Source: Candidatus Saccharimonadia bacterium
Lineage (GTDB): Bacteria; Patescibacteriota; Saccharimonadia; Saccharimonadales; JALRHH01
Length of the DNA stretch: 64,000 bases
NCBI GenBank assembly: GCA_023253175.1
Contig: JALRHH010000002.1
Location: 64,199-128,198 of the forward strand
Direction of reading: 5' to 3'
In this document: positions 393 to 49,526 of the stretch, in pieces
How the letters are laid out: every line of letters begins with the position of its first letter
Position numbering within the stretch: position 1 is the first letter of the stretch
The notes under the pieces: model-generated
Seen by the model: the letters and a program-made list of their open reading frames with translations, nothing else
The model's database searches: none
What the model was told of the DNA's origin: nothing
Position numbers and translations under genes: made by a program

Positions 393-603
393 ATCTACAT
401 TATGTCACAGATAGTTTGAGTAGTTTTGGATATAAAACATATTGCATAATGTTCAGTAAGGTTGGATAATGTGTTTAGAACAAACAGCACACAGACAAGC
501 GACTAGGGGGCGGAGTTAACTAATCCTGGCGATTGACTGGGGTGAATTCTCCTACCAAATGACCTATTCACTTGCCTCACATAATGTAGTGAAGGAGGTC
601 GTT

Positions 604-3600
604 ATGCAAAAGATTAGTTTTGCTAGACTAAAACAAAGACTTAGTAGCGGCGCTATTGCAATGTTATTTATTGCCGCGCAGGTAGCTGCAATTGCCGTAC
701 CATTTATTAACCCCGCTGTCGCTGAGGCGGCACCTGTTTGTGTTAATGACCAGCAGCAAGCAAATGACGAGCCAGGCCAGAAGGATCTTACCCGCTTCTG
801 TGAAGATGCTGGTAACGGTTCAATTAGCTGGAACTGGGACGAACTCTCTGTGAACGGCGCAAATACGCTGGACGGCTGTGCGCTCTTTGATACAGATGGC
901 GACGGATTTGTTAACAGGTCCTTGTGTGTCTCCACTACTGATGGAGTGGCCTTCACAAAAACTATTTACACCTGTAACGACTCGCGAGTTGATCGCTGTT
1001 CAGGTGCAAATACCGGTAATCCAGCCACCTCAAGCTGTAGCTTAGCTGTAACGGCTACCCAGCCATTTGCCGCAGGCTCAAATTCACCTAACGACCTAAC
1101 TGCAACTTGTTCACCGACTGCAGCCGATACTGCCGGAGGTGATCTTATTGATGTCTGTTCTTACCCATCCGGTCAGCCTAATTCAGACCCATCTGACTGT
1201 ATTGTGTATAAGAAAAGTACTGCAAAGATTGAAGTCCGTAAGGTTCTATCACCAACTACTGACCTCGGTCTTTTTGACCTAAAGATCAATGGCACCACCT
1301 ATGCAGACAATGTCGGTAATGGTGGCACGACCGGTGAAGTCGTCGTAGGTGCCGGTAGCGTGACCGTGCTAGAGGCCGAAAATGCCCCAACTGACCTCGC
1401 TGGCTACACCACCACATTGGTTTGCCGCACCCTCAATGGCACTAACCAGACTGCGCTGATTTCGACTTCCCCTACCGGGGCTGACACACGCCAGGGCAGC
1501 TTCACCGCTAATGACGGTGACGACATTGTTTGTATCTTCACCAACACCCTCCAGACTGGCAGCATTAAGGTCGTCAAAGACGTTATTAATGATAATGGCG
1601 GCACAAAGACATACGCTGACTTCCACTTTACGCTTGGCGGTAACCAATATTCATTCGACCCAACGACCTCCCCTGACGGCGAAAAGACCGTTACGTTGCC
1701 TGTCGGATCAGGACCATTTACGGTTACCGAACCAGAAGCCAACACAATGGGCTATGCAACAACTTACAGTAACTGTGCGAACCTAACCGTTGTAGCAGGC
1801 CAGACCCAGACCTGTACGATTACCAATAACGATGTAAGTCCAACACTAACACTCGTAAAGACCGTCGTTAACAACAATGGTGGCACGGCAACTTCGGCAA
1901 ACTTCCAGGGTAAAATTGATTCCAACGAAGTTGCGTGGAGTACTGCAGTTCCCCTCAGCGCCGGTGCACACACCGCCAGCGAAGCGGCTATCTTGCCAGG
2001 CGGTGCTGGATATAGTGCTGGCTCCTGGACCGGTGACTGTGCGGCAAATGGCAGTATTACCCTTAACCTTGGCCAAAATGCCACTTGCTACATCACTAAC
2101 GACGATGTTGCACCAAGCTTAACATTGAACAAAATTGTCTCGAATACTCACGGCGGCACAGCAAGTGCAATAGACTGGATGCTCACCGCGAATGGCCCCT
2201 CACCTCTTTCTGGTGCTGGTGCAGATGGCACTAACGATGTAGTAAGCGGTCCTAGCTTCCAGGCCGGTACGTATACTCTCAGTGAGAGCGGTGGCATTAG
2301 CGGATACTCAGCTAGTGACTGGAGCTGTACTAACGGCATCACAGTTACCAACAACCAAATCACCTTAAAGACAGGTGACACAACAACCTGTACGATCATC
2401 AATAGTGATATTGCACCGATCATCACGATCATTAAACAAGTGCTTAACCCATACGGATCTGCTCTCGCTGCGTCAGCCTTTCCACTATTTGTAGATGGCA
2501 ATAGCGTTACGAGCGGTCAAGCAAACACACAGTTTAACGCTGGTTCGCACATCGTTACCGAAACACAGCAAAATGGCTATGAGTTTACGAGCTTTACTGG
2601 CGACAACTGTAGCATCGTAGATGGCGTTTGGACCGCAGTTGGCTACATCGGCGGCACCACTACTTGTACCATTACAAACACCGCTATTCAGCCTAAGCTG
2701 ATCGTCAAAAAGCACGTCATCAACGACAATGGCGGCACTAAATCAGCTGACGACTTCCAAATGACCGTAAGTGGCACCAGCGTTAGTAGCACGCAATTTG
2801 CGGGCGACGAGGATGGCACAACCGTCTACCTAAGTGAAGGTACGTACAGTGTCGACGAGCTTGCCGACAATGGCTACGCAAAAACGCTCAGCAAGGATTG
2901 TAGTGGCAGCATAAAAATTGGCGAAACTAAGACCTGTACAATCACCAATGATGACAAAGCTGGCAAGCTAACGGTTAACAAGGTTGTTAAGGGCGGTGAT
3001 AGCGAAGCGGATGACTTTAGCTTCAAGATCGATGGCAGCGAAACAGAATACAACTTCGTAAACGGCCAAACTACCGACGAAGGTAGTGTCAGCATTGAAT
3101 TAGATGCAGGCACCTACTCTGCAACAGAAAACGAAGCATACGGCTACGACAAAGATGACAGTGAATGTAAAAATGTAGTTGTGAGCAATGGATCAGAAGC
3201 TAGCTGTACCATCACCAACACAGCTCAGCGCAAGATTACCATCTGTCACGCTACTGCGGCAGTCAAGAATCCATACAACACGATTTCCGTGCCAATATCT
3301 GCTGTTGACGGCGTTGCCGGCAACGAGGCCGGACAAGGCGACCACTACGGTGAGCACCAGGGTCCAATCTTTGATGCGAGTGTGAACCAGAACGGCGATA
3401 ACTGGGGAGACATTATCCCACCAGTACCTCCATACCACGAAGGCCTTAACTGGACCGAAGATGGCCAAGCAGCCTACGAGAACCACTGTACTCCTCCTGC
3501 TAAAGTTATCGTTACTAAGTACAACGACCTAAACCGTAACGGTGTACACGATGAAGATGAGCCACTACTTCCCGACTGGGAGTTCACCCTACAGGAAGAA

Positions 3601-4500
3601 TGTGAAGAGATAGAGCTTGGTGACTTCTTGGCACAGGCCCTAGTTCTTGATGGAGGATGTTACAACAAGACACAGACAACCCTTGAAGATGGCACCACCA
3701 CCTTTACCGGCGTTAAAACAGATCATGTCTACGAGCTATCCGAAACAATTCCAGAAAACAGCAACTGGCACCTCAGCAATATCACTTGTGATGATGAGGG
3801 CGAAGGACAAATTGGCCGTACCATTGACGATGAGTACTACCTCTATCCAGAGTTCCCAGGCGCAACCATCAACTGCGAAGTCGGAAACTACCGTGATGCA
3901 GTACTTGATATTACTAAGGTTAATAATCGACCAAACGCAACGGTTGTGGGTGACACTGTTACCTACACTCTAACCGTGAGCCTTCCACAAGAAAGTGGCA
4001 AGGTATTCGGCACAACCGTGACTGATCTTCCTCCGGAAGGATTCACCTACGTACCAGGCAGCTGGACCGCAGTATCCAACCTGCGTGGCAATATCAAAAA
4101 CATCGTTACAACAGAACCGACGTATGGCTCACCTGGCGTCTGGATACTTGGCGATATGCTTCCTGGTGAAGTTGTCACACTTACCTACCAAACACTAATC
4201 ACATCAGCTGTAAGTGATGGTACATACCCAGATATTGCATTCGCAGAGGGCTGCGATGTACCGATAGACGGAGAGACTGAATGCGGCGAAGGTGCAGTAT
4301 ATGCAAATGTTCGAACCTCAGATGATGATCCATTTGTAGGTACAACGGTAACCGTAGCTTCAGCTCCGCTAAAACCAGCCGTCATAACCCAGCTCGTGAA
4401 CACCGGTAGCAATACCCTGATTAATGCGCTCATAGCAATAACCCTCACAGGAGCGGCCTTTGTCACACTTGTCCGCCGCGAACAGAAAGGAGCAAAGTAA
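604..4500 (+). CDS. Giant sortase-anchored cell-surface protein (7 tandem Ig/Cna-B-like repeats, ICH..NPY module, SdrD-B-like and DUF11-like domains, LVNTG sorting signal)
   Basis: ORF 559-4500. GGAGG at 593-597 favours ATG 604 (MQKISFARLK.. plus hydrophobic signal). Repeats each end in xTCTITN. Further motifs are KITICHATAAVKNPYNTISV, DLNRNGVHDEDE (Ca-site-like) and LDITKVNN..VGDTVTYTLTV. The C-terminus has LVNTG (4393-4407), a hydrophobic helix and RREQKGAK. Confidence 0.85.
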   Translation: MQKISFARLKQRLSSGAIAMLFIAAQVAAIAVPFINPAVAEAAPVCVNDQQQANDEPGQKDLTRFCEDAGNGSISWNWDELSVNGANTLDGCALFDTDGDGFVNRSLCVSTTDGVAFTKTIYTCNDSRVDRCSGANTGNPATSSCSLAVTATQPFAAGSNSPNDLTATCSPTAADTAGGDLIDVCSYPSGQPNSDPSDCIVYKKSTAKIEVRKVLSPTTDLGLFDLKINGTTYADNVGNGGTTGEVVVGAGSVTVLEAENAPTDLAGYTTTLVCRTLNGTNQTALISTSPTGADTRQGSFTANDGDDIVCIFTNTLQTGSIKVVKDVINDNGGTKTYADFHFTLGGNQYSFDPTTSPDGEKTVTLPVGSGPFTVTEPEANTMGYATTYSNCANLTVVAGQTQTCTITNNDVSPTLTLVKTVVNNNGGTATSANFQGKIDSNEVAWSTAVPLSAGAHTASEAAILPGGAGYSAGSWTGDCAANGSITLNLGQNATCYITNDDVAPSLTLNKIVSNTHGGTASAIDWMLTANGPSPLSGAGADGTNDVVSGPSFQAGTYTLSESGGISGYSASDWSCTNGITVTNNQITLKTGDTTTCTIINSDIAPIITIIKQVLNPYGSALAASAFPLFVDGNSVTSGQANTQFNAGSHIVTETQQNGYEFTSFTGDNCSIVDGVWTAVGYIGGTTTCTITNTAIQPKLIVKKHVINDNGGTKSADDFQMTVSGTSVSSTQFAGDEDGTTVYLSEGTYSVDELADNGYAKTLSKDCSGSIKIGETKTCTITNDDKAGKLTVNKVVKGGDSEADDFSFKIDGSETEYNFVNGQTTDEGSVSIELDAGTYSATENEAYGYDKDDSECKNVVVSNGSEASCTITNTAQRKITICHATAAVKNPYNTISVPISAVDGVAGNEAGQGDHYGEHQGPIFDASVNQNGDNWGDIIPPVPPYHEGLNWTEDGQAAYENHCTPPAKVIVTKYNDLNRNGVHDEDEPLLPDWEFTLQEECEEIELGDFLAQALVLDGGCYNKTQTTLEDGTTTFTGVKTDHVYELSETIPENSNWHLSNITCDDEGEGQIGRTIDDEYYLYPEFPGATINCEVGNYRDAVLDITKVNNRPNATVVGDTVTYTLTVSLPQESGKVFGTTVTDLPPEGFTYVPGSWTAVSNLRGNIKNIVTTEPTYGSPGVWILGDMLPGEVVTLTYQTLITSAVSDGTYPDIAFAEGCDVPIDGETECGEGAVYANVRTSDDDPFVGTTVTVASAPLKPAVITQLVNTGSNTLINALIAITLTGAAFVTLVRREQKGAK
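1225..3222 (+). repeat. Seven tandem intragenic repeats of ~86-109 aa inside the surface protein
   Basis: Units start with a beta-strand like KIEVRKV / SIKVVKDVINDNGGTK / LTLVKTVVNNNGGTA / LTLNKIVSNTHGGTA / IITIIKQVLNPYGS / KLIVKKHVINDNGGTK / KLTVNKVVKGGDSE. Units end in CIFTNT / CTITNND / CYITNDD / CTIINSD / CTITNTA / CTITNDD / CTITNTA (aa 223-888 of the 559 frame). Confidence 0.85.
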
Positions 4501-5216
4501 TGAAAAAGTTATTACTTTTCGTAGCAAGTGTTTTCAGCCTTGCGGTAGTATTTGGAACATCTGGATTGGCAGCAACACCAACTAACTCATGGAAGGTCGA
4601 GCTCTACACCCCTGCACTTTCAGACACCAAACGCTCACTTAATATCGAGTACAAAGTACTTTCTATTAATGAAGCGGACAATACTTACAGTGTAAAACTC
4701 TTCCAGAACGATGTAGAGGTTAGCAACCAAGCGCTCAACCACCCCTACGGTGATTCAGGCGTATTTAGCGTCTCCCTGCCAGCTAACGGCACGTACACCT
4801 ACAAAGTATCAGTAGATAATGTTAATGCAGGCCAGACGAAGGTTAGCAGCAGTAAAAGCGTTACCATCGTAAACGGCCCCCAGCCAATTGTTACCACTAC
4901 AGCGGTAAGTAATAGCGGGCAAGCAGCAACTGGTACTACAGCGGCCGCAGATGGCTCACAGGCGGCAGTCGCAGGTGCCAATACAGGAGCTACTGGCACC
5001 AACGCCGCTCCTGGTAGTACCGAGGACGCCAGTAACGATGGCAAAGTGACTGACGAAGCAGCCAACACTGACAAAAAGGACGGCCAGGCACTTGGTGCAG
5101 CAACAAACAAGAACAATGCCTCAGGTAATACCAAGTGGTTTATCCTGGGGGCAGTTATCCTTGGGCTAGGTGCCGGAGCCTACTACTGGCTTATGCGACG
5201 CGGACGTGAAGCGTAG
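4500..5216 (+). CDS. Secreted, C-terminally membrane-anchored protein with A/T/G-rich linker
   Basis: The ATG overlaps the upstream stop (TAATG), suggesting translational coupling. Signal peptide MKKLLLFVASVFSLAVVFGTSGLA, low-complexity TTAVSNSGQAATGTTAAADGSQAAVAGANTGATG linker, C-terminal TM WFILGAVILGLGAGAYYWL plus RRGREA. No LPXTG motif. Confidence 0.7.
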   Translation: MKKLLLFVASVFSLAVVFGTSGLAATPTNSWKVELYTPALSDTKRSLNIEYKVLSINEADNTYSVKLFQNDVEVSNQALNHPYGDSGVFSVSLPANGTYTYKVSVDNVNAGQTKVSSSKSVTIVNGPQPIVTTTAVSNSGQAATGTTAAADGSQAAVAGANTGATGTNAAPGSTEDASNDGKVTDEAANTDKKDGQALGAATNKNNASGNTKWFILGAVILGLGAGAYYWLMRRGREA

Positions 5217-5279: not shown

Positions 5280-5452
5280 AATAATGGGAATTATTTCATA
5301 TATTCTTGCGGCGTGCTCGGTGCAAGCACCTGTGCGCGTCCTCGAATATGACCTCCACGACCTATGCATCTTTTGCTAGAGCAAAATCTGCGGTCGTGAG
5401 TTCTATTCATAAGCCCAAAAGAAAAACCCATCACTAGGATGGGTTTTTCTTT
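5280..5452. repeat. tRNA-3'-flanking structured element, copy 1 (next to tRNA-His)
   Basis: The left edge aataatgggaatt (5280-5292) is an exact 13-nt direct copy of tRNA-His acceptor/T-stem DNA at 5460-5472. The body shares block gtgctcggtgcaagcacctgtgcgcgtcctc with the copy at 49286. It has a 7-bp outer stem cacgacc/ggtcgtg enclosing hairpin ttttgc-taga-gcaaaa, as in the copies at 16393 and 49286. Confidence 0.65.
5422..5448 (-). terminator. Bidirectional hairpin terminator 3' of tRNA-His
   Basis: aaaaaccca-tcactagga-tgggttttt, with A/T runs on both sides. Confidence 0.6.
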
Positions 5453-5530
5453 TGGGGCGAATAATGGGAATTGAACCCACGACCTCCTGGACCACAATCA
5501 GGCGCTCTAACCAACTGAGCTATATCCGCC
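5453..5530 (-). tRNA. tRNA-His (GTG)
   Basis: The reverse complement folds as a cloverleaf: G-1 plus acceptor GCGGATA/TATTCGC, D arm GCTC-AGTTGGTTA-GAGC, anticodon loop TTGTGGT (GTG), T arm GTGGG-TTCAATT-CCCAT, discriminator C, encoded CCA. The extra 5' G pairing with C73 is the His hallmark. Confidence 0.9.
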
Positions 5531-6457: not shown

Positions 6458-6534
6458 TGGTGCCCCGAGGTGGATTCGAACCACCGACCTTAGGCTTAGA
6501 AGTCCTCTGCTCTATCCAGCTGAGCTATCAGGGC
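6458..6534 (-). tRNA. tRNA-Arg (TCT)
   Basis: Acceptor GCCCTGA/TCGGGGC, D arm GCTC-AGCTGGATA-GAGC, anticodon loop CTTCTAA (TCT), T arm GGTGG-TTCGAAT-CCACC, discriminator A, encoded CCA. The anticodon stem (GAGGA/GCCTA) has mismatches at both ends. Confidence 0.8.
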
Positions 6535-8450: not shown

Positions 8451-9701
8451 TTAAAGCTGCTTTAATTGTTTAAGTAGCACTTTGCGGCTAACTTGTTTAA
8501 TTCTAGAGACTTCGCTTATTGCAAAAAAGTCAGATGGTTCCGGATTGAAAATCGAAGGTAGACCAACGTGCCCAAACAGATCTTCATTACCATGAAGCTT
8601 CGCTTCGTGAGCAGTATCACTACGAGGCTTATAAGCATCAGCTATTTGTTTTGCCTTTGTTTTAGACTTTGCAACTGTCTCAATCCCAAGGATAAACCTC
8701 TTTTTGTTGCCTGCGTTGCGATTAATCTTTCTGCCTATTGTTTCAATAGAGGATACGAAGGCAAGTAAAGCAAATGAGGGGTGCTGTGCCTCCATAAGAA
8801 GACCTTGATGATACGTATTTATGGCATTAAGCACATGCTCATCAGTATTAATCTTCTTAAACGCATTAGGTAGCCATTTAGGTATAGTCCTCCTATGTCG
8901 CTGCGCCCACATAGCAGGAAAGTGCAGCGGCTGAATACCTATCCCCGTTTTTGGAACTTTGATAGGCTTGGCCCCTTGGGGTTGAGGGGAATGAATGATT
9001 TGCCACGTAGACTTCCATGCGATCGATATTAACGCTACAAGATTATTTAAATCTCTGCTCGCTTCTTTCGAAGCTTCGGTCCAGTCATACCCAGTAGCCG
9101 TACCCGTAATGATAATTGGATACGTCGAATTAAACGAACTGCTGTTAAATCTAGGCGCCGTATTAATGTCAAGCGACGTGTGCAAAGCTCTATTTGGACG
9201 AAGCGTAAGATCACCTATCTTTGATTTAGACTTCAGCGAATAGTGTTCACTTCTGCCAGTTTCCCGGACTTGGCCAATTACTGCCTCCCACTTGAATTGC
9301 TTTGCAAGTTGCTTCTTGAGTTCTAACGTGGCTTTATCGATTACTTCAAGCCACATATCAATTTGAGACTTTGTTATATCTGTTTCAGACTCAAGAACCA
9401 CATAAACACCATTAGGTGTTGTGCCGCCATGCAAGATGAGCAAATATGGTAGATCAATGGTTTTACCTTCATTACCATGGAATGTCATTTTTAAATGCCA
9501 GTATGGAAAATCTTCGTCAGCGGGTTTCGACTGTAATCCGTGGCCATTCATGTCAGGGACGAATTTTTTGAGTTCTTCGGCAACAAAGTTAACCCACCTT
9601 TCGCCTTCCTTTGAGTAATCTACTAGAAGCGATTTGACATAAAGCTGGTGGAAATTACGACTTGCCATTTTTTCTATTTTTAACCTCCTGGTCAACTTCA
9701 T
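8451..9701 (-). CDS. Cassette protein C: unknown N-terminal domain plus HEPN-like C-terminal module (R-x4-H)
   Basis: 416 aa (alternative start ATG 9668, MASRNF). C-terminal PSFALLAFVSSIETIG ... YKPRSDTAHEAKLHG: a hydrophobic helix with Glu, then RSDTAH (nt 8607-8624). No other motif recognised. Confidence 0.5.
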   Translation of the reverse strand: MKLTRRLKIEKMASRNFHQLYVKSLLVDYSKEGERWVNFVAEELKKFVPDMNGHGLQSKPADEDFPYWHLKMTFHGNEGKTIDLPYLLILHGGTTPNGVYVVLESETDITKSQIDMWLEVIDKATLELKKQLAKQFKWEAVIGQVRETGRSEHYSLKSKSKIGDLTLRPNRALHTSLDINTAPRFNSSSFNSTYPIIITGTATGYDWTEASKEASRDLNNLVALISIAWKSTWQIIHSPQPQGAKPIKVPKTGIGIQPLHFPAMWAQRHRRTIPKWLPNAFKKINTDEHVLNAINTYHQGLLMEAQHPSFALLAFVSSIETIGRKINRNAGNKKRFILGIETVAKSKTKAKQIADAYKPRSDTAHEAKLHGNEDLFGHVGLPSIFNPEPSDFFAISEVSRIKQVSRKVLLKQLKQL

Positions 9702-12413: not shown

Positions 12414-12887
12414 AGTGTACTGCTTTTACGAAAGGGGTTCTATATTTATACTATCTATAAAGCTTATGGCAAGACCTACCGTAATGACTGGAAGGTCGCC
12501 TTCCCCGAGGGAAAAGCCGTCGTGGAAGTAAAGGGTGTCGGAAAGAGCGCCGCTGAGAAGCATGCTGCCCAACTTGAGAAGTGGGTGGCTTCGGAAATGG
12601 AAGAATCTGGCGAGGCCCCAAAGGGAATCCTAGTCGTAAACACGTGGAGAGAAACCGCACTGGATGAGCGGCCCGCCGAAGACTTTCCGGATCAGATGCT
12701 GAAGTACTCCAAGAGTCGCGGACACTGTCTAGTGTCAGGATTGCAGCTATTTGTAATCCGAGAGGAGGTGGAAGCTAATCCCAACCGCGCTGAGTTCTGG
12801 CGTAAGAAGATCATGAAGACCTCTGGCGTGCTTGCCGGCGCGACGGATTGGCCAAAGTATCTACTCAGAGTTCAGGCAGCCGAGTAG
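12414..12887 (+). pseudogene. 5'-truncated remnant of a PD-(D/E)xK (Mrr/restriction-endonuclease-like) nuclease gene
   Basis: The frame is open from 12414 with no ATG; the ORF track starts at GTG 12522. It reads ..YRNDWKVAFPEGKAVVEVKGVGKSAAEKHAAQLEKWV.., which is D-x12-E-V-K followed by a Q-containing helix. GC is 34/60 at 12541-12600, higher than the flanks. Confidence 0.45.
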
Positions 12888-13084
12888 CGTGGCGTCGGTA
12901 CATCCACCCCTGGCGACTGTTGTCGGAAATACTTGTACCGATGCGCTCGCACCCTAATGCGATTCAAACCCGTCTACAGAGGTGGGCCGAAACGGGGACA
13001 AAGCAAAAGCCGCCTCGGTGTGTACCAATGCGGCCCAATTGGTGCGCTCTCACCCCTGTTTTGGAATGAGAACCATTATCATAT

Positions 13085-13159
13085 TGGTGCGGGTGGAGGG
13101 AGTCTAACCCTCGTCGCCTGCTTGGAAGGCAGGAATAATAAACGTTATACCACACCCGC
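13085..13159 (-). tRNA. Atypical tRNA-Gly (TCC)-like gene
   Basis: 75 nt. Perfect acceptor GCGGGTG/CACCCGC, perfect anticodon stem CCTGC/GCAGG with loop CTTCCAA (TCC), perfect T stem GAGGG/CCCTC, discriminator A, encoded CCA. The D region (GTAT-AACGTTTA-TTAT) is AT-rich with TT where G18G19 are expected. The T loop is TTAGACT (A where C56 is expected). Confidence 0.55.
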
Positions 13160-16392: not shown

Positions 16393-16568
16393 GGGATAAA
16401 GGACAGGGCACTTCTACGGCTGTGCTCAGAATGAATTCCTGTGCGCAGCCTTGCAGACCGAACCGTTCGACCTTCAATCTTTTGCTATGGCAAAATCTTG
16501 GGTAGAAGGTCCGTATCTTTTAGCTCAGGCAAAGAAAAAACGACTCTCGGAAGAGAATCGTTTTTTCT
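16393..16568. repeat. tRNA-3'-flanking structured element, copy 2 (next to tRNA-Pro)
   Basis: The left edge gggataaaggac (16393-16404) repeats tRNA-Pro acceptor/T-stem DNA at 16575-16586. Block gtgctcagaatgaattcctgtgcgc, outer stem gaccttc/gaaggtc around ttttgc-tatg-gcaaaa, then terminator aaaaaacgactctc-ggaa-gagaatcgtttttt. Confidence 0.6.
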
Positions 16569-16645
16569 TGGTCGGGGATAAAGGACTCGAACCTTCGACC
16601 TCGCGGTCCCAAACCGCGCGCGCTAGCCAACTGCGCCAATCCCCG
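16569..16645 (-). tRNA. tRNA-Pro (TGG)
   Basis: Acceptor CGGGGAT/ATCCCCG, D arm GCGC-AGTTGGCTA-GCGC, anticodon arm CGCGG-TTTGGGA-CCGCG (TGG), T arm GAAGG-TTCGAGT-CCTTT, discriminator A, encoded CCA. Confidence 0.9.
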
Positions 16646-21353: not shown

Positions 21354-22304
21354 TTATTTATCCTGCTGGACCGCAAAAACAATAATACGTTTTTCTGTGC
21401 CGCTAAATTTGTTGAGTGTCGTCACGAGATTAAGCCCTTTCTTAGCCGGGTCAATAGACGAAATTGCCGCACTCATATCGATCTGACCGCCGGTATATTC
21501 TTGAATTCGCTCTACCGCGTACGTAATTACATGGCCATCACCACGCTCTATAATAATTTCATCGCCAACATGGAGCGCTTGGATGTCGGTAAAAATACCC
21601 ATTTTTGTAGGACCCGCCAGGTGACCATTCAAAAGCACCGCTCCGTCTGCACCCGGACGACTACTGCCCTCGTACCACCCGACATCATTAATATTTTTTG
21701 GAGCAATTGGTTCACCGCTCAGTGTCGTACCAACCTGTCGAATACGTGCAGCAATCTGAAGATTCGGAATTTTAAGTGTCTTTGGCGCATCAGCAGCCAC
21801 AACATTTGATTCGATTTCCGCCTCAGATACCGGCGATTCATCAAGCGTTGCCATTTCCTTGGACACAGGTTCAACCGAATTAACTGCCTCATTCTTTTGC
21901 TTAAAGAATTCAAGATCAAACGGCAACGCCTCTCTGAATGACCATACAACCACACAAAACGCGCCAATAACCGCGAATGCAAAGATGTACCACAGAAAAT
22001 GCAGACTGCGCTCTTTTTTAACCTTAGCTTTTTGCTCTTTTGCACGCTCTACCATCTGACGGCGGAGAACCATTGACCGCTTTGTTCGGGCCATAGCAGG
22101 CTTAACACTTGATACTTGGCGAGGTACGTTCGCTTTAGGCACACTGGCACTATCTACATGGCTAGCTTTAGGCGGCTGGCTACTCGAATGACTTCGATGA
22201 GGAGCACTTATATCTCCTCCGGCACGAGCAAGCGGACTATGTGATACATAGCGGCGACCCGGCTCTCTTCTCGTAACTCTTGTGTGTTTTGTTGGCTCTT
22301 GCAT
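21354..22304 (-). CDS. Class F sortase-like protein lacking the catalytic cysteine (Thr at the Cys position)
   Basis: GGTGGAG RBS before ATG 22304. Basic N-terminus, TM (FLWYIFAFAVIGAFCVVVW), then LKIPNLQIAARI, DVGWYEGSSRPGADGAVLLNGHLAG, HVGDEIIIERGDGHVITYAV, LNLVTTLNKF (expected L-x-L-[IV]-T-C), EKRIIVFA. Confidence 0.6.
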   Translation of the reverse strand: MQEPTKHTRVTRREPGRRYVSHSPLARAGGDISAPHRSHSSSQPPKASHVDSASVPKANVPRQVSSVKPAMARTKRSMVLRRQMVERAKEQKAKVKKERSLHFLWYIFAFAVIGAFCVVVWSFREALPFDLEFFKQKNEAVNSVEPVSKEMATLDESPVSEAEIESNVVAADAPKTLKIPNLQIAARIRQVGTTLSGEPIAPKNINDVGWYEGSSRPGADGAVLLNGHLAGPTKMGIFTDIQALHVGDEIIIERGDGHVITYAVERIQEYTGGQIDMSAAISSIDPAKKGLNLVTTLNKFSGTEKRIIVFAVQQDK

Positions 22305-22352
22305 TACTCCACCTAGCAGGCACAAAGACTCTTTTGCTAACTCTACTATACA

Positions 22353-25463: not shown

Positions 25464-26495
25464 CTACTCCGCTGCAGCTAGTTCGCGGACTTTTTGATCA
25501 AGCTCTGTGAGGACTTCTGAGTTTTCCTTCAGATATTCCTTGGCAGCTTCGCGTCCTTGGCCGATGGTCTGGCCATTATATTTGTAGAAAGCGCCGGCCT
25601 TTTCAACTAGGTTACGGTTGGTAGCAAGGTCAAGCACGTCACCAGCGGTTGAGATACCCTGGTTGTACATAATGTCGAACTCCGCTTCACGGAATGGCGG
25701 AGCGATCTTATTTTTGACTACCTTTACACGGGTCCGGTTACCAACAACCGAATCGCCTTGTTTAATCTGTGAAATACGGCGAATGTCCATACGGACAGAT
25801 GCATAGAACTTCAGCGCATTACCACCGGTTGTAGTCTCCGGGTTGCCAAACATAACACCGATCTTCATACGGATCTGGTTAATGAAGATAACTGTCGCCT
25901 TTGACTTGTTAATAACACCGGTCAACTTACGGAGTGCCTGGCTCATAAGGCGGGCCTGAAGACCGGGCAATGAATCACCCATGTCACCTTCGATTTCTGC
26001 ACGTGGAACCAATGCCGCAACAGAGTCAACAACGATCAGATCAACTGCATTTGAACGGACCAAAGTCTCTACGATTTCGAGCGCCTGCTCACCGTTGTCT
26101 GGCTGTGAAAGGAGCAAGTTCTCTACGTCAACACCAATACGTTTTGCGTAGGCTGGATCAAGCGCGTGCTCTGCATCGATAAATGCAGCAGTGCCGCCTT
26201 GGCGCTGCACCTCTGCAATTGCATGAAGCGTTAGTGTCGTCTTACCAGAACTTTCTGGACCATAAATCTCAACCACGCGGCCCTTTGGAATACCGCCGCC
26301 AAGCGCAAGATCAAGCGATAATGCACCCGTTGGGATCGTCTCTACGTTTACTTTGTGCGCCTCGCCAAGCTTCATAATAGAGCCCTTGCCGAATTGCTTC
26401 TCGATAGATTCTAATGCAAGGCCGAGCGCCTTGGTCTTGCCCTCTGATTCTGCATCAGTCATTGTCTTTAGTGGCTTGTCTTTTTTCGCTGCCAT
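25464..26495 (-). CDS. recA: Recombinase RecA
   Basis: AAGGAGGG RBS 9 nt before ATG 26495 (MAAKKDK..). GPESSGKTT Walker [10 protein letters not shown], unmistakable RecA sequence. Confidence 0.95.
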
Positions 26496-26715
26496 GTCTG
26501 TATACCCTCCTTGATTAATCGGCCCTTCACATCTTGGTGTCAATGACAGGCTTTGCCCTAACTATAGCGAAAATTGTTTAATTTATCGAAGGGTAGTAAA
26601 TACTACACTTAAGAGAAATAAAACGATTTGCAGCCAGGTAGGCTAAGCGTGTCGTGGCACAAAAGTGTGAAGGTCCGATTTTTGTCCACCTGTTACTTCT
26701 TATTATATCAAGAGA

Positions 26716-26729
26716 CGAAATATATTTCG
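26716..26729. promoter_or_regulatory. Perfect 14-bp palindrome CGAAATATATTTCG, candidate operator upstream of pilB
   Basis: It lies 40 nt upstream of the pilB ATG in the recA/pilB divergent intergenic region. No cognate regulator identified. Confidence 0.3.
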
Positions 26730-26769
26730 CCTATATTATGCTTGAGCTTTTGCTATACTAAGCATAACT

Positions 26770-28578
26770 ATGCGCATATCTGATGCATTGGTGGAAAAAC
26801 TGTTGGTGGGGGCAGACAGAATTGCCGCTGACCAATTGAGTGCGCTCAAGGAACAAGAGAAAACAGAGAAAAAGCCGCTTCAAGACCTTGTCATTGGCAA
26901 CGGTCTCATATCTGAAAAAGACCTAACCCAGCTTTACGCCGATGAAGTTGATATACCCTACACTGACCTCAATCCAAAAGAGATAAAAAAGGACGTTCTG
27001 AAGCTGATTCCAGAACATATCGCCCGGCAGTACGGAGTCATCCTATTCGGTGTCGATGAAGATGAGACGAAGCTCCTGGCCATGGAAGACCCAGATGACA
27101 TTCCGGCGATTAACTTCCTGCGAAAACAACTGGGTGATGCAATCAAGGTCTATGTTGCGCCGGTCAGTCAAATTCAGTCAGCACTTGATCTCTACCGTGG
27201 AAACATCAGTAGTGAACTCACGCAGGTTATCAGCGAAGAGGAAGAAGAGGCAGCGACAGAAGATGTCAGTGCCGAAGACCTCAGTGAAGACTCCCCGATT
27301 GCCCAGACTGTTAATTTACTCATCGAGTATGCGATCCGGAGTGGCGCCAGTGATATTCACATTGAACCAAGGGAAAACGTTGTATCCGTACGTTACCGTG
27401 TTGATGGTATTTTGCGCGAAGCCAATAAGCTTCCCAAAAAAGTGCATAGCGCATTAATTTCCCGTATTAAGATCCTTTCAAATCTTAAAATCGACGAACG
27501 TCGCGTACCCCAGGATGGTCGATTCAAGATCAAAATTGGAAGCGGTATTTATGCGCTTCGTGTCTCGACACTGCCTATTACTGAGGGCGAGAAGGTCGTT
27601 ATGCGTATCCTTAACGAATCAAGCGGTGCAGCAACCCTCGAAGAACTGGGATACTGGGGCATCTCACTAGATACACTTAATGAATCAATTCGCCAGCCGC
27701 ACGGTATGATTCTCGTAACTGGACCGACGGGGTCTGGAAAATCAACAAGTCTTTTCAGTACCCTAAGCCTTCTGAACAAGCCAAGCGTCAATATCTCTAC
27801 CGTTGAAGATCCGGTTGAATATAAAATACCCGGTGCAAACCAGACGCAGGTTAACCCTAAGGCGGGTATGACGTTTGCCGCAGGACTCCGTGCACTCCTT
27901 AGGCAAGACCCGAACATTATTATGGTTGGTGAGATTCGTGACGGTGAAACATCGGGCCTAGCCGTACAAGCAGCGCTTACAGGTCACCTTGTGTTCGCAA
28001 CGCTTCACACCAATAACGCGGCAACCTGTCTTCCCCGTCTACTTGATATGGGTATCGAGCCATTCTTGATCGCAAGCACGGTGCGCTCTGTCGTGGGTCA
28101 GCGTCTTGTCCGAAAGCTATGTGTCGACTGCCGCGAGGAAATCACACCAGACACAGCAGCACTGAAGCAAATCGCGGATATCTATGGTATCAATGACACT
28201 GCTGTCATGAAGCGTATCCACGACCTTGAGGTGAGTGCACTCGAAGGTGGCATCGGCAAGAGCAACAGCGGCAAGGCTAAGGTTGATACGACCAAATTAT
28301 CCACTACCGACTCCAAGATACAGCGGCTCTTTAGGGCACATGATGAGGGCTGTGACAGCTGTGGCCACACTGGCTACAAGGGCCGAATGGGAATCTATGA
28401 AGTGCTTCGAAACTCCGGAGAAGTACAGCGCCTTATCGTAAGCAATGCAACAAGTGACACTATTCAGAATCAGGCCGTCAAAGAAGGTATGGTGACAATG
28501 CAGGTTGACGGTTTCATAAAGGCACTCCGTGGCCAAACAACCATTGAAGAAATCCTACGAGTAACCGCAGAAAGTTAA
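26770..28578 (+). CDS. pilB: Type IV pilus assembly ATPase PilB (GspE family)
   Basis: 602 aa. VTGPTGSGKST Walker A, GEIRD, tetracysteine CVDC..CDSC, GspE N-terminal domain. Confidence 0.9.
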   Translation: MRISDALVEKLLVGADRIAADQLSALKEQEKTEKKPLQDLVIGNGLISEKDLTQLYADEVDIPYTDLNPKEIKKDVLKLIPEHIARQYGVILFGVDEDETKLLAMEDPDDIPAINFLRKQLGDAIKVYVAPVSQIQSALDLYRGNISSELTQVISEEEEEAATEDVSAEDLSEDSPIAQTVNLLIEYAIRSGASDIHIEPRENVVSVRYRVDGILREANKLPKKVHSALISRIKILSNLKIDERRVPQDGRFKIKIGSGIYALRVSTLPITEGEKVVMRILNESSGAATLEELGYWGISLDTLNESIRQPHGMILVTGPTGSGKSTSLFSTLSLLNKPSVNISTVEDPVEYKIPGANQTQVNPKAGMTFAAGLRALLRQDPNIIMVGEIRDGETSGLAVQAALTGHLVFATLHTNNAATCLPRLLDMGIEPFLIASTVRSVVGQRLVRKLCVDCREEITPDTAALKQIADIYGINDTAVMKRIHDLEVSALEGGIGKSNSGKAKVDTTKLSTTDSKIQRLFRAHDEGCDSCGHTGYKGRMGIYEVLRNSGEVQRLIVSNATSDTIQNQAVKEGMVTMQVDGFIKALRGQTTIEEILRVTAES

Positions 28579-28579
28579 T

Positions 28580-29788
28580 ATGAAATTTACCTATACCGCA
28601 ATCGACAAAACTGGCAAACGAACAACAGGCGCCATTGAATCAAGCTCAGAGGCAGCTGCGAATGAATCACTCAAAAACAAAGGACTTCGGCCGCTGAGCC
28701 TCAAGAAACAATCAGGTCTTGCCGGCGGTGCACTATTTGGCAAAAAGAAGGTAAAGCTCAAAGAAACGATGATTTTTACTCGCCAGCTGGCGACTATGAT
28801 TAATGCCGGGGTGCCGCTCGTAAGGTCGCTCAATACCCTGCAGAGCCAAACCGAGAACGCAACGTTAAAGCGCCACATTACAGAAGTATGTAAAGACGTC
28901 GAAGGAGGAATTGCTTTTGCGGATGCTCTCGAAAAACACCCTTCTATTTTTAGTCCAATTTACATCAACATGGTGCGTGCCGGTGAAGCCGGAGGTATCC
29001 TTGATGACATCCTTGGAAAGCTCGCAACGCAGCAAGAAAAAGATGCCCACATTCGTGCCAAGTTTAAAGGTGCGATGACCTATCCAGTTATTCTGCTTTC
29101 GATCACGTTCCTCGTTTTCTTAGGACTTATGGTTGTTGTGATGCCAAAGCTCGGACAGATCATCAAAGAGCTCGCTGGACCAGACGCGACCATGCCGGCA
29201 ACCACACAAGCCATGCTTAATTTCAGCTCATTTTTAATACATAACTGGCTGCTTATTATTATCGTGGTCGGCGTCGGTAGTTTCTTCTTGAGACGCTATA
29301 TTAAAACACCTAAAGGCAGACGGGCCAAAGACAAGTTCCTCATGAAAATACCGGTACTCAATGGCATCATCAAAAAAGTTGCGATTGCACGCTTCGCCAG
29401 AATCTTCGCCAGCCTCATGGGCGCAGGTGTTAATGTCGTCGATTCTATTCACATTACCGCAAAAGCACTCGGTAATGCAGTAATTGAAGATGAGCTAATG
29501 GATGCATCAAAAGCAGTCGTAAATGGACAGCAATTATCAGTCCCCCTTAGTAACAGCCAAGTACTACCTCAAATTGTTAGCCAGATGCTTGCCGTTGGCG
29601 AGGAAACAGGTCAGACCGATGTTATCCTGCTAAAAATTGCTGACTTCTACGAAGAAGAAGTCGATGTTGTCGTTGATAGCCTCAGTTCTATCCTGGAGCC
29701 AATTATGATCGTCGTAATGGGCGGCATGGTTGGAGTTGTGGCGATTAGTGTTATTGGGCCGATTAGTAAGCTCTCTTCTCAGTTATAG
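28580..29788 (+). CDS. pilC: Type IV pilus platform protein PilC (GspF family)
   Basis: 402 aa. Two GspF repeats and 3 TM segments. Confidence 0.85.
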   Translation: MKFTYTAIDKTGKRTTGAIESSSEAAANESLKNKGLRPLSLKKQSGLAGGALFGKKKVKLKETMIFTRQLATMINAGVPLVRSLNTLQSQTENATLKRHITEVCKDVEGGIAFADALEKHPSIFSPIYINMVRAGEAGGILDDILGKLATQQEKDAHIRAKFKGAMTYPVILLSITFLVFLGLMVVVMPKLGQIIKELAGPDATMPATTQAMLNFSSFLIHNWLLIIIVVGVGSFFLRRYIKTPKGRRAKDKFLMKIPVLNGIIKKVAIARFARIFASLMGAGVNVVDSIHITAKALGNAVIEDELMDASKAVVNGQQLSVPLSNSQVLPQIVSQMLAVGEETGQTDVILLKIADFYEEEVDVVVDSLSSILEPIMIVVMGGMVGVVAISVIGPISKLSSQL

Positions 29789-29911
29789 CTGTGCAAAAAC
29801 ACTTGCATAACCGCCATGCTGTGATACTGTTATAAGCATAAGCCTCATATGATTGATATGATGCAGGTTTAGATATAGAAATTAAGCTAATAAGTAATAA
29901 GGGTGGGAATA

Positions 29912-30394
29912 ATGTCCAAAACACTTAAGGCAGTACAAAAAGGTTTCACAATCATCGAACTTTTGATTGTGATTGCGATTATCGCTATCTTGGCGCTCTT
30001 CGTTATTAATAACATTCAGGGTGGTCAGGCCAAGGCTCGTGACCAGCAGCGTGTCAACGACATCAACGCTATCAAGAACCAACTTGAGAGCGTCTACAAC
30101 GAGACAAGCACATACCCAAGCACCGTGAGCACTACAACGCTTACCGGCGTTGAAGAAGGTGCCCTAAAGGACCCAATCGGGAACCAGGACGTAAGTAACG
30201 TAACTCCAGTTGCGAACCAGGCTGCAGCACTTGCCGCAACTGCAGCAGCTGACACCGGCACAAGCGCTGGATACTACTACATCCCTTACAACTGTACTGG
30301 TACAACATGTACTGGCTACGTTCTAAAGGCTCCAGTAGAAAAGAACACTGATGCAATTACTGGCGTATACGTCGTAAAGAGCCTCAACCAATAG
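29912..30394 (+). CDS. pilA: Major type IV pilin (prepilin N-terminal methylation motif)
   Basis: ATG 29912. KGFTIIELLIVIAIIAILA class III signal, followed by a strong terminator. Confidence 0.85.
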   Translation: MSKTLKAVQKGFTIIELLIVIAIIAILALFVINNIQGGQAKARDQQRVNDINAIKNQLESVYNETSTYPSTVSTTTLTGVEEGALKDPIGNQDVSNVTPVANQAAALAATAAADTGTSAGYYYIPYNCTGTTCTGYVLKAPVEKNTDAITGVYVVKSLNQ

Positions 30395-30413
30395 TAAGTT
30401 GCCTCTTACATAT

Positions 30414-30441
30414 AAAAACACCCCATGATCGGGGTGTTTTT
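30414..30441 (+). terminator. Rho-independent terminator after pilA
   Basis: acacccc-atgatc-ggggtgt followed by TTTTT. Confidence 0.75.
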
Positions 30442-30492
30442 ATATGACCGTCAAAATGCTTATGCTATAATTACCCCTGAAAGAGACAAGCC

Positions 30493-32925: not shown

Positions 32926-32986
32926 TGAAAACGAATGTCGTCTGGTATACTAAGCGTAGAAATACCGCTTATGGTGGGCAGTAATA

Positions 32987-35276: not shown

Positions 35277-35281
35277 GACAT

Positions 35282-35584: not shown

Positions 35585-35585
35585 T

Positions 35586-36173: not shown

Positions 36174-36183
36174 ATATTCTATT

Positions 36184-49450: not shown

Positions 49451-49526
49451 TGGAGGGCTCACCGGGGCTCGAACCCGGGACACGAGGCTTAAAAGGCCTC
49501 TGCTCTACCAACTGAGCTATGAGCCC
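49451..49526 (-). tRNA. tRNA-Lys (TTT)
   Basis: Acceptor GGGCTCA/TGAGCCC, D arm GCTC-AGTTGGTA-GAGC, anticodon arm GAGGC-CTTTTAA-GCCTC, T arm CCGGG-TTCGAGC-CCCGG, encoded CCA. Confidence 0.9.

Follow-up and report, generated by a model that had tools for sequence, protein, structure and literature searches.

Structured units at three tRNA genes

The window, that is, the whole 64-kb stretch of DNA analysed here, carries structured units at tRNA-His, tRNA-Pro and tRNA-Lys. At tRNA-His, the 13-nt sequence AATAATGGGAATT was found exactly twice in the 64-kb window, at 5280–5292 and 5460–5472 with a separation of 180 bp, confirming the exact repeat that an earlier note on this DNA had described as bounding the unit. 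In standard tRNA numbering, however, the repeat covers approximately positions 57–69, i.e., the end of the T-loop, the 3′ strand of the T-stem and the first 4 nt of the acceptor 3′ strand, and not 60–72 as given there. The features of the His unit are as follows.

5453–5529, minus strand: tRNA-His (GTG), called by ARAGORN and scoring 64.9 bits with the Rfam tRNA model
5460–5472, minus strand: proximal copy of the 13-nt repeat (AATTCCCATTATT), within tRNA-His
5414–5457, no strand: T, a long A-tract/T-tract hairpin read from the sequence as a bidirectional terminator, part of the putative inserted unit
5392–5417, minus strand: A, antisense copy of the 3′ half of tRNA-His (~46–62 and beyond), degenerate
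5371–5386, minus strand: H1, conserved hairpin TTTTGC-TCTA-GCAAAA at the tip of stem P1, invariant in 26 of 26 family members
5350–5362, minus strand: b′, sense copy of tRNA-His ~45–52 (GGTCGTGG...)
5310–5343, no strand, folding best on plus: M, conserved module GAGGACGCGCACAGG-TGCTTGCA-CCGAGCACGCC, hairpin interrupted by an internal loop
5293–5309, minus strand: P4, site of a small 3′ hairpin placed by alignment, degenerate in the His copy (GCAAGAATATATGAAAT)
5280–5292, minus strand: c′, distal copy of the 13-nt repeat

The stem of T reaches into the CCCCA end of tRNA-His. The reverse complement of A, GGTCGTGAGTTCTATTC, was compared with the tRNA sequence GGTCGTGGGTTCAATTC; its 3′ part, CACGACC at 5392–5398, is the 5′ strand of P1, and the partly decayed b′ supplies the 3′ strand (5356–5362). 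The other two units have the same architecture.

16393–16586, minus strand: unit at tRNA-Pro(TGG), covariance model score 64.8 bits; c′ 16393–16404, M 16418–16453, b′ 16458–16475, H1 16480–16495, A 16501–16531, T 16532–16572, proximal repeat 16575–16586, P1 16505–16511/16469–16475
49286–49467, minus strand: unit at tRNA-Lys(TTT), covariance model score 74.4 bits; c′ 49286–49298, M 49319–49352, b′ 49359–49367, H1 49368–49384, A 49387–49416, T 49412–49455, proximal repeat 49455–49467, P1 49388–49394/49361–49367

Each is bounded by a tRNA-specific repeat, of 12 nt at tRNA-Pro (16393–16404 and 16575–16586) and 13 nt at tRNA-Lys (49286–49298 and 49455–49467), which likewise occurs only twice in the window. 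The bodies of the three units, each ~170–180 bp, are homologous: a 30-nt block at 5314–5343 has 2 mismatches to 49323–49352, with 0 such matches expected from shuffles, and the 7-bp stems and TTTTGC-N4-GCAAAA hairpin that had been noted before are present in all three. A covariance model built from the wider family scored the three copies at 62.8–74.4 bits and found no fourth copy in the window.

A family of units in Saccharibacteria and related Patescibacteria

Relatives of the units were compiled from 40+ loci of Saccharibacteria/Patescibacteria (labelled L001 onwards). A family pattern matched 5 times in genomes and gave 25 real matches in metagenomes, and the covariance model added 9 further matches, 2 of which are weak. 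Nearly all of them lie directly 3′ of a tRNA on the same strand. Read in the sense of the tRNA, the order of parts was constant: the tRNA is followed by a long terminator hairpin and an antisense copy of the tRNA 3′ half, then by the TTTTGC-N3-4-GCAAAA hairpin and a sense copy of tRNA ~45–57, and finally by a conserved covarying hairpin module and a sense copy from tRNA ~57/60 onwards. The junction sequence, GGTTCGG / CGA-TCC, corresponds to the T-loop GTTCGR.

Beyond the three units of the window, >40 further copies lie at no fewer than 17 tRNA species, with arms that match the unit's own tRNA; no unit with arms of a 'wrong' tRNA was caught in the family. Inverted-copy scores were mostly 25–41 at tRNAs with units vs. 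14–21 at empty sites. The hairpin loops of the units belong to the GNA/GNNA class, as is usual for DNA mini-hairpins of high stability.

Filled and empty sites

At tRNA-Arg(TCT), an empty site was found in L043, where the tRNA is directly followed by the terminator ...AAGCTTTGGCATTGCCGAAGCTTTTTTGTTGAG, and the site is also empty in the window. In the related L044/L045 it is filled: the tRNA-Arg is followed by an island, a decayed 3′ copy, T, A, H1, b′, M and c′ (ATCCAGCTCGGGGCACTA), and after c′ comes the same original terminator that directly follows tRNA-Arg in L043. Because the original terminator abuts c′ in L044/L045, it is unlikely that the L043 state arose by deletion from the L044 state. 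Conversely, the tRNA-His site holds a unit in the window but none in L043 and L002; in L043, synteny to an Exo_endo_phos gene near tRNA-His is kept. Both states thus exist at orthologous tRNA-His and tRNA-Arg(TCT) sites, as seen in the comparison of tRNA loci among relatives that the earlier note had proposed. Ten same-species contigs (L033–L042, with an identical neighbour protein) have the window's 414-nt spacing between the flanking genes, and L033, the one of these scanned with the model, has the His unit.

The displaced original 3′ end and original terminator lie just beyond the unit, and the terminator of the unit differs from the original one. Across copies, the repeat is 11–34 nt long and starts at T-loop ~57–60 in all of them. 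Its end is variable and often falls exactly at CCA (17 nt in L001; also to CCA in L006, L010, and L021), and the 34-nt repeat of L023 includes 17 nt of trailer. Tandem arrangements were found as well: L008 has two units, the distal one being the ortholog of the sole L004 unit and the proximal one common to L001/L014; L015 has two units of different types; and L044/L045 carry the island and an older unit. The synteny break between L010 and L027 falls exactly inside c′.

These comparisons show, at the level of sequence, that the unit is an insertion with its right-hand junction in the T-loop at ~57–60, bringing a replacement 3′ end and terminator and displacing the originals, and that in tandem arrays the newer units adjoin the tRNA with the older ones pushed outward. 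On this insertion model, the last ~20 nt of tRNA-His (5453–5472) would come from inserted DNA, and c′ of the His unit would be what is left of the original tRNA 3′ end after its displacement. The 12–13-nt duplication, formerly taken as that of a target site, is then better described as the remnant of an att-type repeat, which reaches 17 or even 34 nt elsewhere. The His and Lys repeats of the window do not fade out but stop sharply, within the acceptor strand or where it ends, which calls for either a subsequent deletion or selection acting on exactly these 13 nt. The Pro units of the window and L002 are orthologous and look vertically inherited, so that mobility may be ancient or rare.

It is very unlikely that the units are leftover att scars of larger prophages or islands whose interior was deleted, and not discrete elements. 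Although tRNA 3′ ends are clear hot spots for larger islands, such as those in L019 (5 kb, with a serine recombinase), L044 (2 kb), L028, and L016, and although decayed partial tRNA copies and nested fragments do occur (L004, L026-Ser, L017-Leu), ~35 copies at 17 or more tRNAs share a size of ~170–190 bp and one order of parts. In every case the terminator is placed immediately after the tRNA 3′ copy and immediately before the antisense arm, a constancy that random internal deletions would not yield. Moreover, the islands are separate insertions with a repeat of their own, located between the tRNA and an older complete unit, and M was never seen at the end of a gene-bearing element.

The antisense arm sets in precisely at the base of the terminator hairpin, where its TGG faces CCA, and in several units runs, degenerate, through the whole tRNA 3′ half; the part of it outside P1 has no strand-specific wobble bias, consistent with copying followed by drift, and the direct-inverted-direct layout recurs with unrelated module types. 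These features would suit by-products of local replication or repair errors, made by fold-back template switching at the terminator hairpin, quasi-palindrome correction or snap-back copying of a terminated pre-tRNA, with no mobile element involved. We consider this origin highly improbable, however, since H1 and M are homologous across many tRNAs and genomes, indicating that something was inherited or transferred, and the differing terminators of unit and original site also speak against it. In the young unit L001, furthermore, agreement between the antisense arm and its tRNA is confined to the two ends and missing in the middle, suggesting that the arm was carried in and not copied in situ. 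The same arm weakens the idea that the antisense arm is freshly copied from the target at insertion. At L011 there is a hint that CCA/TGG is kept in the 3′ copy and antisense arm of a unit whose tRNA gene encodes no CCA; if so, mature tRNA would be the source of the arms, suggesting a retro-type origin.

Searches for genes, promoters and known RNA families

No ORF was found inside the ~180-bp unit. With neither an ORF nor an integrase, the unit would be non-autonomous if mobile. Pfam searches of 30 window ORFs and 98 non-redundant ORFs around the units revealed no tyrosine recombinase among the families listed, and no recombinase was found among the 30 window ORFs. The only recombinases listed for the ORFs around the units are two large serine recombinases, which belong to separate islands that join at the CCA end, not the T-loop. 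The family pattern had no match in 2.9 million viral contigs, and no free or circular form was seen in the assembled contigs.

A promoter scan detected none directing transcription into the His unit on either strand. With Rfam 15 at gathering thresholds, only five tRNAs were detected in the window, and permissive thresholds added only sub-threshold terminator hairpins for the His and Lys units, in agreement with the earlier note, which had recognised no named RNA family in the unit. No published description of these units was found in the literature. The tRNA group I introns of Patescibacteria were ruled out, as they are located at 35/36 in the anticodon loop (PMC13011429). A tRNA-like fold, a split or permuted tRNA and a tmRNA-like domain were rejected too, the unit having no copy of the 5′ acceptor strand, D-arm or anticodon arm; its spacer has no pairing to the acceptor 3′ strand.

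Covariation and strand preference

The outer stem P1 had been described as textbook covariation. Its 3′ strand copies the variable-loop/T-stem 5′ strand of each tRNA, and the 5′ strand of P1 repeats that segment in antisense orientation; since both strands copy the same tRNA segment, the changes are not independent. The genuine covariation sits in the conserved module hairpin, where the observed score for M was reached by 0 of 500 shuffles. The covariance modelling advocated in the earlier note yielded further copies, and support for covariation came from the module. That note had not recognised the stem strands as tRNA copies, the terminator as part of the insertion or the T-loop as the insertion point.

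Nearly all nucleotides of a unit are self-complementary: the antisense arm A pairs with the two sense arms, b′ and c′, on either side of M. When the inserted segment was folded as a DNA circle, z-scores were −2.1 to −9.7 and 67–76% of the bases were paired. Counting of G·U pairs, which should have assigned a single strand, gave contradictory answers from the two helices, with 49 on the sense strand vs. 9 on the antisense strand for P1/H1, and 12 on the sense vs. 35 on the antisense strand for M; accordingly, no strand was assigned. Opposite preferences are hard to reconcile with a single RNA and suit a DNA element, because DNA has both strands, which favours a DNA-level role as a folded-strand recombination site.

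We regard as unlikely the alternative that the unit or its module is a functional ncRNA from the plus strand of the window, antisense to the tRNA. Such an RNA would consist of a 5′ arm antisense to tRNA ~60–72, an M/P4 scaffold, a second arm antisense to ~46–57, H1, a tRNA-like decoy and the shared bidirectional terminator. Its arms would pair with the tRNA or the tRNA-sense DNA strand flanking T-loop nucleotides 58–59, to which it might direct a partner protein in the manner of an H/ACA-type bipartite guide; it could also be the cargo of a mobile unit. This reading accounts well for M, which on the plus strand is a nearly continuous hairpin with 98.1% of cells paired (69–85% on the minus strand), an invariant U·G and one position that switches between G·U and Watson–Crick. 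It is also consistent with the arms flanking M, which match the cognate tRNA in every copy, with P4, which is intact in other members and in which a compensatory change separates the near-identical L010 and L027, and with the hairpin at the plus-strand 3′ end, which read this way is likewise a good intrinsic terminator. The compensated conserved hairpins would equally fit a functional RNA. However, the promoter scan offers no plus-strand start, young copies are enclosed by terminators on both sides, and P1 shows its wobble tolerance on the opposite strand in 26 of 26 units. The distal arm c′ is decayed in many copies (L020, L022, L026-Arg, L009), contrary to expectation for a guide. The units have no linked gene for a partner protein, and pairing with a mature tRNA, whose T-arm and acceptor are folded, is sterically unlikely. 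Of the structured plus-strand RNA suggested earlier, therefore, the preferred folding of M on that strand was retained, whereas the position between two bidirectional terminators with no promoter found, and the opposite preference of the other helix, tell against it.

Discussion

Integration into tRNA genes is textbook knowledge, and the elements concerned are normally kilobase-sized, carry their own integrase and use one tRNA each. By contrast, the whole element considered here is ~180 bp long, contains no gene and consists almost throughout of self-complementary sequence; versions matched to no fewer than 17 tRNAs occur in organisms whose genomes measure roughly 1 Mb. We think it probable, if far from certain, that 5280–5472 is an integrated copy of a family of miniature, non-autonomous elements free of protein genes in the tRNA genes of Saccharibacteria and related Patescibacteria. 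Of the reading of an integrative element at the tRNA T-arm/acceptor given in the earlier note, this keeps the integration, on the evidence of filled and empty sites, displaced ends, arrays and >40 copies, and gives up the likeness to MITEs.

The site comparisons show that the inserted DNA opens with a tRNA 3′ end that it brings along, made up of the T-stem 3′ strand, the acceptor 3′ strand and CCA. A strong hairpin terminator, also part of the element, comes after it, and an intact tRNA gene is thereby regenerated; the antisense copy of the 3′ half, H1, the second sense copy (~45–57), M and P4 come next. The original 3′ end of the host, with the original terminator where preserved, is pushed downstream and decays to the 12–13-nt repeat of the window. 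We infer that a recombinase encoded elsewhere moves the units in trans, by an att-type site-specific recombination of the tRNA T-arm with the junction of M and the element's tRNA 3′ copy. Given the near-total self-complementarity, the recombining form is probably a folded single strand or a cruciform, which would imitate the duplex of the tRNA gene, M being extruded where the crossover takes place. If this mechanism holds, the units would be among the smallest site-specific integrative elements known to us, and a natural system for re-addressing a folded DNA or RNA recombination site to new targets.

Matched arms at 17 tRNAs or more are hard to explain by a classical sequence-specific integrase. 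A distinctly unlikely possibility is that the units are a self-contained, retargetable nucleic-acid-guided system, in which the arms serve as guides re-templated from the target and M recruits an enzyme. The antisense and two sense arms, as RNA or folded single-stranded DNA, would then recognise the uninterrupted T-arm or tRNA, and M would bring a candidate host or element enzyme to T-loop positions 57–60. Snap-back copying at the pre-tRNA terminator hairpin, or quasi-palindrome correction, might re-template the arms, which would explain how one scaffold colonised at least 17 tRNAs. A guided system of this type would be a new kind of programmable insertion element without protein genes, and its RNA version would provide the first case in bacteria of a bipartite guide RNA directed at the tRNA T-loop. 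Partial copies of tRNAs and puzzling 'structured intergenic' signals 3′ of tRNA genes in Patescibacteria are accounted for by the units, which mark hot spots of genome plasticity there.

Comparison with known systems

The topology of the folded form is probably the same as that in integration of CTX-phage attP(+) or integron attC. In those systems, as is well established, the product consists of a hybrid site, a short 'genome', an inverted site copy, a loop and a hybrid site; structure is conserved over sequence, pairing is imperfect with bulges at the crossover, and tandem arrays form at the target, all of which resembles the units. The units differ in targeting the tRNA T-arm instead of dif or attI, and in the wobble tolerance of their helices on opposite strands (P1/H1 tRNA-sense, M antisense). 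The integron core GTTRRRY (RYYYAAC/GTTRRRY) is not matched by the T-loop GTTCGR, whose fourth nucleotide is C, and no dif-like 28-mer (XerC/D site) was noticed on reading the sequence. For the units, a part played by Xer or IntI and a single-stranded stage would be hypothetical.

The bridge RNA of IS110 is a structured non-coding segment of ~150–250 nt next to a DEDD recombinase gene, with guides that match both target strands beside a short core and are held in two internal loops, the 5′ guide for the bottom and the 3′ guide for the top strand (PMC11208160). It was rejected as a model: no DEDD recombinase gene adjoins the units, and polarity and loop architecture do not fit (compare PMC11208160). 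The guides of the units are stems paired together and not internal loops, their 5′ ends point to the core where the 3′ ends do so in IS110, and 13–34 nt of the target are duplicated, whereas IS110 repeats only a 2-nt core.

Like MITEs, REP/REPIN sequences and IS200/IS605-derived palindromes, the units are small, non-coding, structured, intergenic, multi-copy and presumably trans-mobilised. They differ in having no terminal inverted repeats, fixed-length target-site duplication or identified transposase, and in lying strictly at tRNA 3′ ends with tRNA-specific arms. A MITE was rejected on two grounds: the inverted partner of the left-end tRNA copy is internal, after the terminator, with the M/P4 module forming the right end, and the repeat, of 11–34 nt with a variable end, is not a fixed-length target-site duplication.

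The closest likeness is to the integrative elements that target tRNA genes, including derivatives of them that lack an integrase: genomic islands whose crossover lies in the T-loop or at the 3′ end, cis-mobilizable elements (CIMEs) and tycheposons with their remnants. Both insert in the 3′ part of a tRNA gene, restore the gene with a tRNA 3′ copy of their own, leave a partial tRNA copy at the far side, accrete in tandem and leave filled and empty sites among relatives; in tycheposons, newcomers to a tandem array push older elements outward (bioRxiv 10.1101/2020.12.28.424599). Of the marks of such integration, a restored 3′ end, filled and empty sites and tandem accretion are all found in the units, and an integrase of their own is not. 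The units further differ in being only ~180 bp long and gene-less, with one family on at least 17 tRNA species, in adding to the 3′ half of the tRNA an antisense copy and another sense copy, which makes the layout direct-inverted-direct, and in carrying a conserved covarying hairpin module exactly at the junction. They are best read as a variant of the tRNA-targeting integrative elements not previously described.

Three homologous units at tRNA genes

The feature at 5280-5472 is real and clearly non-random, and belongs to a family of units that probably represent miniature, gene-less integrative elements specific for the tRNA T-loop, with a triple-copy architecture and a conserved structured module. 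ARAGORN predicted five tRNA genes in the window:

5453-5529, minus strand, tRNA-His
6458-6534, minus strand, tRNA-Arg(TCT)
13085-13159, minus strand, tRNA-Gly(TCC)
16569-16645, minus strand, tRNA-Pro(TGG)
49451-49526, minus strand, tRNA-Lys(TTT)

Homologous segments lie 3' of tRNA-His, tRNA-Pro and tRNA-Lys, toward lower coordinates, while tRNA-Arg is followed by a terminator alone. The 30-nt block GAGGACGCGCACAGGTGCTTGCACCGAGCA at 5314-5343 recurs at 49323-49352 with two mismatches (chance expectation, 0). Each unit ends with an exact copy from its own tRNA, of 13 nt for tRNA-His (5280-5292, identical to 5460-5472; about 57-69 in standard tRNA numbering), 12 nt for tRNA-Pro (16393-16404 and 16575-16586) and 13 nt for tRNA-Lys (49286-49298 and 49455-49467), and each repeat word occurs twice in the whole 64 kb. 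These exact repeats and homologous segments confirmed the three units, each with its own tRNA repeat, described in the earlier note, and the stems and TTTTGC-N4-GCAAAA hairpin reported there were present.

Unit anatomy

In the tRNA-sense direction, the part order was identical in every unit: c, T, A, H1, b', M, P4, c'. Part c is the tRNA's own end (T-stem 3' strand, acceptor 3' strand and CCA), and T is a long hairpin with A-rich/T-rich flanks, whose stem runs on into the tRNA NCCA, paired with an opposite TGG. A is an antisense copy of the tRNA 3' half, well kept at about 46-65 and traceable to CCA in several units; at L004 (L001-L045 denote related genome and metagenome loci of Saccharibacteria/Patescibacteria), rc(A) reads GGTCCCAGGTTCGGGTCTTGG--CCAAAACCA against the tRNA GGTCCCAGGTTCGAGTCCTGGTCCCGCAACCA. 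The conserved hairpin H1 (TTTTGC-N3-4-GCAAAA) is followed by b', a sense copy of tRNA positions about 45-57 with GGTTCGG at its end, by the module M (conserved CGCRCAGG-N10-GAGCA plus an outer stem), by the small variable hairpin P4 (often GCGAAGC or GGC-NNN-GCC), and by c', which repeats the tRNA in sense orientation from about 57/60 onward. The inserted piece, from c to M, is 169-190 bp long.

The tRNA 3' half is therefore present at each locus in direct-inverted-direct order, and the inverted-copy score was mostly 25-41 at unit-bearing tRNAs vs. 14-21 at empty ones. A pairs both with b' (stem P1) and with the beginning of c', which leaves M extruded at the T-loop as a third junction arm. 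As the P1 strands are a tRNA copy and its complement, the outer-stem covariation claimed in the earlier note does not represent independent compensatory evolution. The same layout was found with quite different modules at tRNA-Gly(GCC) in L029 (3900-4170) and at tRNA-Leu(GAG) and tRNA-Leu(CAG) in L017 (430-640 and 7230-7450), indicating that it is a property of the process and not of one module.

Family distribution

A pattern from the window's three copies matched in five representative genomes, all of them MAGs labelled Candidatus Saccharibacteria/Saccharimonadales or 'Patescibacteria group', and a related pattern matched 27 metagenome contigs, two of them by chance in high-GC coding sequence. 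With a covariance model covering H1 and the module, the family gained seven more matches in pattern-found loci (two weak) and two in later-fetched loci. Nearly all copies directly follow the 3' end of a same-strand tRNA gene; those without an adjoining tRNA are on a cut contig or have another island between tRNA and unit (L016, L019, L028, L044). Hosts include tRNA-His, Lys, Pro(TGG), Pro(CGG), Trp, Met(CAT) of two kinds, Asn, Val, Ala, Phe, Leu(TAA), Ser(GGA, GCT, CGA) and Arg(CCG, GCG, TCT), with arm-matched units at no fewer than 17 tRNA species. Consistent with the first impression of no named RNA family, Rfam gave no family, scores being confined to tRNAs and terminator look-alikes. Neither a match in viral contigs nor a description in the literature was found.

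Insertion into the tRNA gene

The clearest case of a unit inserted in a tRNA gene comes from related genomes, L043 vs. L044/L045. In the empty L043, tRNA-Arg(TCT) is directly followed by AATAAAAGCTTTGGCATTGCCGAAGCTTTTTTGTTGAG and then an Exo_endo_phos gene. In the filled L044/L045, a ~2-kb island comes next after this tRNA, then a decayed 3' copy, GCATCCCAGAGGAGCACCA, and T, A, H1, b' and M; to the right of M come c' (ATCCAGCTCGGGGCACTA) and the same terminator and gene as in L043. The original 3' end and terminator are thus displaced, and the working tRNA uses the inserted ones. Both states were also seen for tRNA-His downstream of the orthologous Exo_endo_phos gene, filled in the window and empty in L043; it is empty in L002 as well. 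In young copies the repeat reaches exactly CCA (L001, 17 nt; also L006, L010 and L021), and in L023 it spans 34 nt, trailer included. L008 carries two tandem units, the distal one being the orthologue of L004's only unit and the proximal one common to L001/L014, indicating that newcomers enter beside the tRNA. The sequences of L010 and L027 agree almost completely as far as a point within c' and are unrelated past it.

These comparisons indicate that the units behave as tRNA-targeting integrative elements: they insert at the T-loop, regenerate the tRNA 3' end, supply a terminator, displace the original end and accrete at the same site, with no gene within the unit.

Structure and strand preference

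Alignment of 26 distinct sequences indicated structural selection on the module, as its hairpin was 100% paired, three positions alternated between two Watson-Crick pairs (17:9, 17:9 and 16:9), and its covariation score was reached by 0 of 500 shuffles. Between L010 and L027, which are almost identical, P4 has changed in ways that preserve the hairpin.

With regard to strand, the two helices contradict each other. For the A-H1-b' hairpin, the tRNA-sense strand gave the better fold in 26/26 units (mean -4.45 kcal/mol), with 49 G.U pairs vs. 9 on the other strand. In contrast, M folds better on the antisense (window plus) strand, the one considered in the earlier note for a structured RNA: 98.1% of cells are paired, an invariant U.G and a position alternating between G.U and Watson-Crick are A.C on the sense strand, and G.U pairs number 35 vs. 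12. A outside P1 showed no strand bias (whole-arm transitions, 61 G.T-type vs. 55 A.C-type) and so resembles copied sequence drifting neutrally. No promoter was found on either strand, and bidirectional terminators flank the unit on either side. Folded as a DNA circle, the inserted segment gave z of -2.1 to -9.7 with 67-76% paired, and its small loops are mostly GNA/GNNA closed by C-G, a classic type of stable DNA mini-hairpin. Taken together, the opposite strand preferences, missing promoter, terminator flanks, strong DNA self-structure and DNA-type loops lean toward the unit acting as folded DNA, where both strands are available, over one RNA; a functional RNA, as alternative or addition to an insertion element, is a less likely but live reading.

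Recombinase search and proposed mechanism

For 30 ORFs of the window and 98 ORFs near units, the listed Pfam families included no tyrosine recombinase, and the only recombinases were large serine recombinases in separate islands joined at the CCA end. We propose that the integrative unit is mobilised in trans by a putative recombinase whose site would be the tRNA T-arm, which naturally forms an inverted repeat around a 7-nt spacer. In the recombining form, A would pair with b' and the element's tRNA 3' copy, and the folded rod, with M bulging at the crossover, would mimic the duplex of the tRNA gene; one strand exchange between the folded strand and the tRNA gene would yield exactly the observed part order. 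The arms appear to be carried in rather than copied at insertion, since the middle of A in the young L001 unit mismatches its own tRNA, and a unit of another family in L015 has an antisense arm from a different tRNA. Speculatively, arms could be matched by hairpin-templated correction from the adjacent tRNA, or by copying of pre-tRNA transcripts, with the terminator hairpin possibly self-priming.

Other insertions and genome context

Window positions 12875-13085, the ~210 nt directly 3' of tRNA-Gly(TCC), share ~70% identity with the left end of the L044 island (~2 kb) at tRNA-Arg(TCT), including the hairpin terminator GCCGCATTGGTACACACCGAGGCGGCTTTT. This segment appears to represent a second conserved family of non-coding DNA at tRNA 3' ends, in which case four of the five window tRNAs may carry insertions. 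In L019 (4900-9840; Resolvase, Recombinase and Zn_ribbon domains at 8497-9360) and L016 (1-3000; Resolvase domain at 1-840), serine-recombinase islands separate the CCA end of the tRNA from an older mini-unit; they are bounded by a short repeat (GCAACCA in L019) and use the same tRNAs as mini-units at a different sublocation. L015 670-885 (tRNA-Trp) is likewise direct-inverted-direct with an unrelated module, and the antisense arm of the L015 proximal unit fits a tRNA other than its own (rc = GGTTCGAATCCGTATCGCCTAC), a hint that a unit moved from one tRNA to another. Within the displaced 3' copy, nested or partial insertions were seen in L004 (6440-6520, an ~85-nt piece between flanking TCCTGGTC), in the L026 tRNA-Ser(GCT) unit (duplicated P4-plus-junction block) and in L017 (7400-7450, a remnant of the studied family's P4, AAAGGACGAAGTCCGCTA, on the far side of a newer unit of a different type).

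At tRNA-Asn of L011/L028, the displaced copy reads ...CCTCCCGAG|AAAC, without CCA, and the working tRNA ...CCCGAGCCAAAC. Possible causes are a 3-nt deletion, or an original gene with no encoded CCA and an element-borne end that has one; the latter, if true, would point to an origin from mature tRNA. L009 1700-1907 holds a second, slightly divergent tRNA-Lys-plus-unit copy on the opposite strand of the same contig ('tRNA-???' per ARAGORN), which may be a duplication or an assembly artefact. The window context (559-5216, 21354-22325, 25464-37221) is ordinary Saccharibacteria chromosome, with a 1313-aa SpaA-type pilin-like protein, its 238-aa partner, a sortase, the type IV pilus genes PilM and T2SSF (which may serve competence), RecA, RuvB and DnaJ.

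Comparison with known systems

The earlier reading of a miniature, non-autonomous integrative or MITE-like element was essentially right as to integration at tRNA genes, given the filled and empty sites, displaced 3' end and accretion; its MITE-like part was rejected, as the units have neither terminal inverted repeats nor a fixed-length duplication. An IS110 bridge-RNA locus (PMC11208160) was also rejected, because guide polarity and architecture differ and no recombinase gene is present. The proposed strand exchange shares its topology with the integration of CTX-phage attP(+) at dif; the likeness to CTX attP(+) and integron attC is topological only, as core sequences mismatch and the unit strand evidence is mixed. 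With tRNA-targeting integrative elements and their integrase-less satellites or remnants, the units share the tested defining features except an encoded integrase. In tycheposons, new elements push older ones outward and leave partial tRNAs behind (bioRxiv 10.1101/2020.12.28.424599), and the units match them in both outward displacement by newcomers and leftover partial tRNAs.
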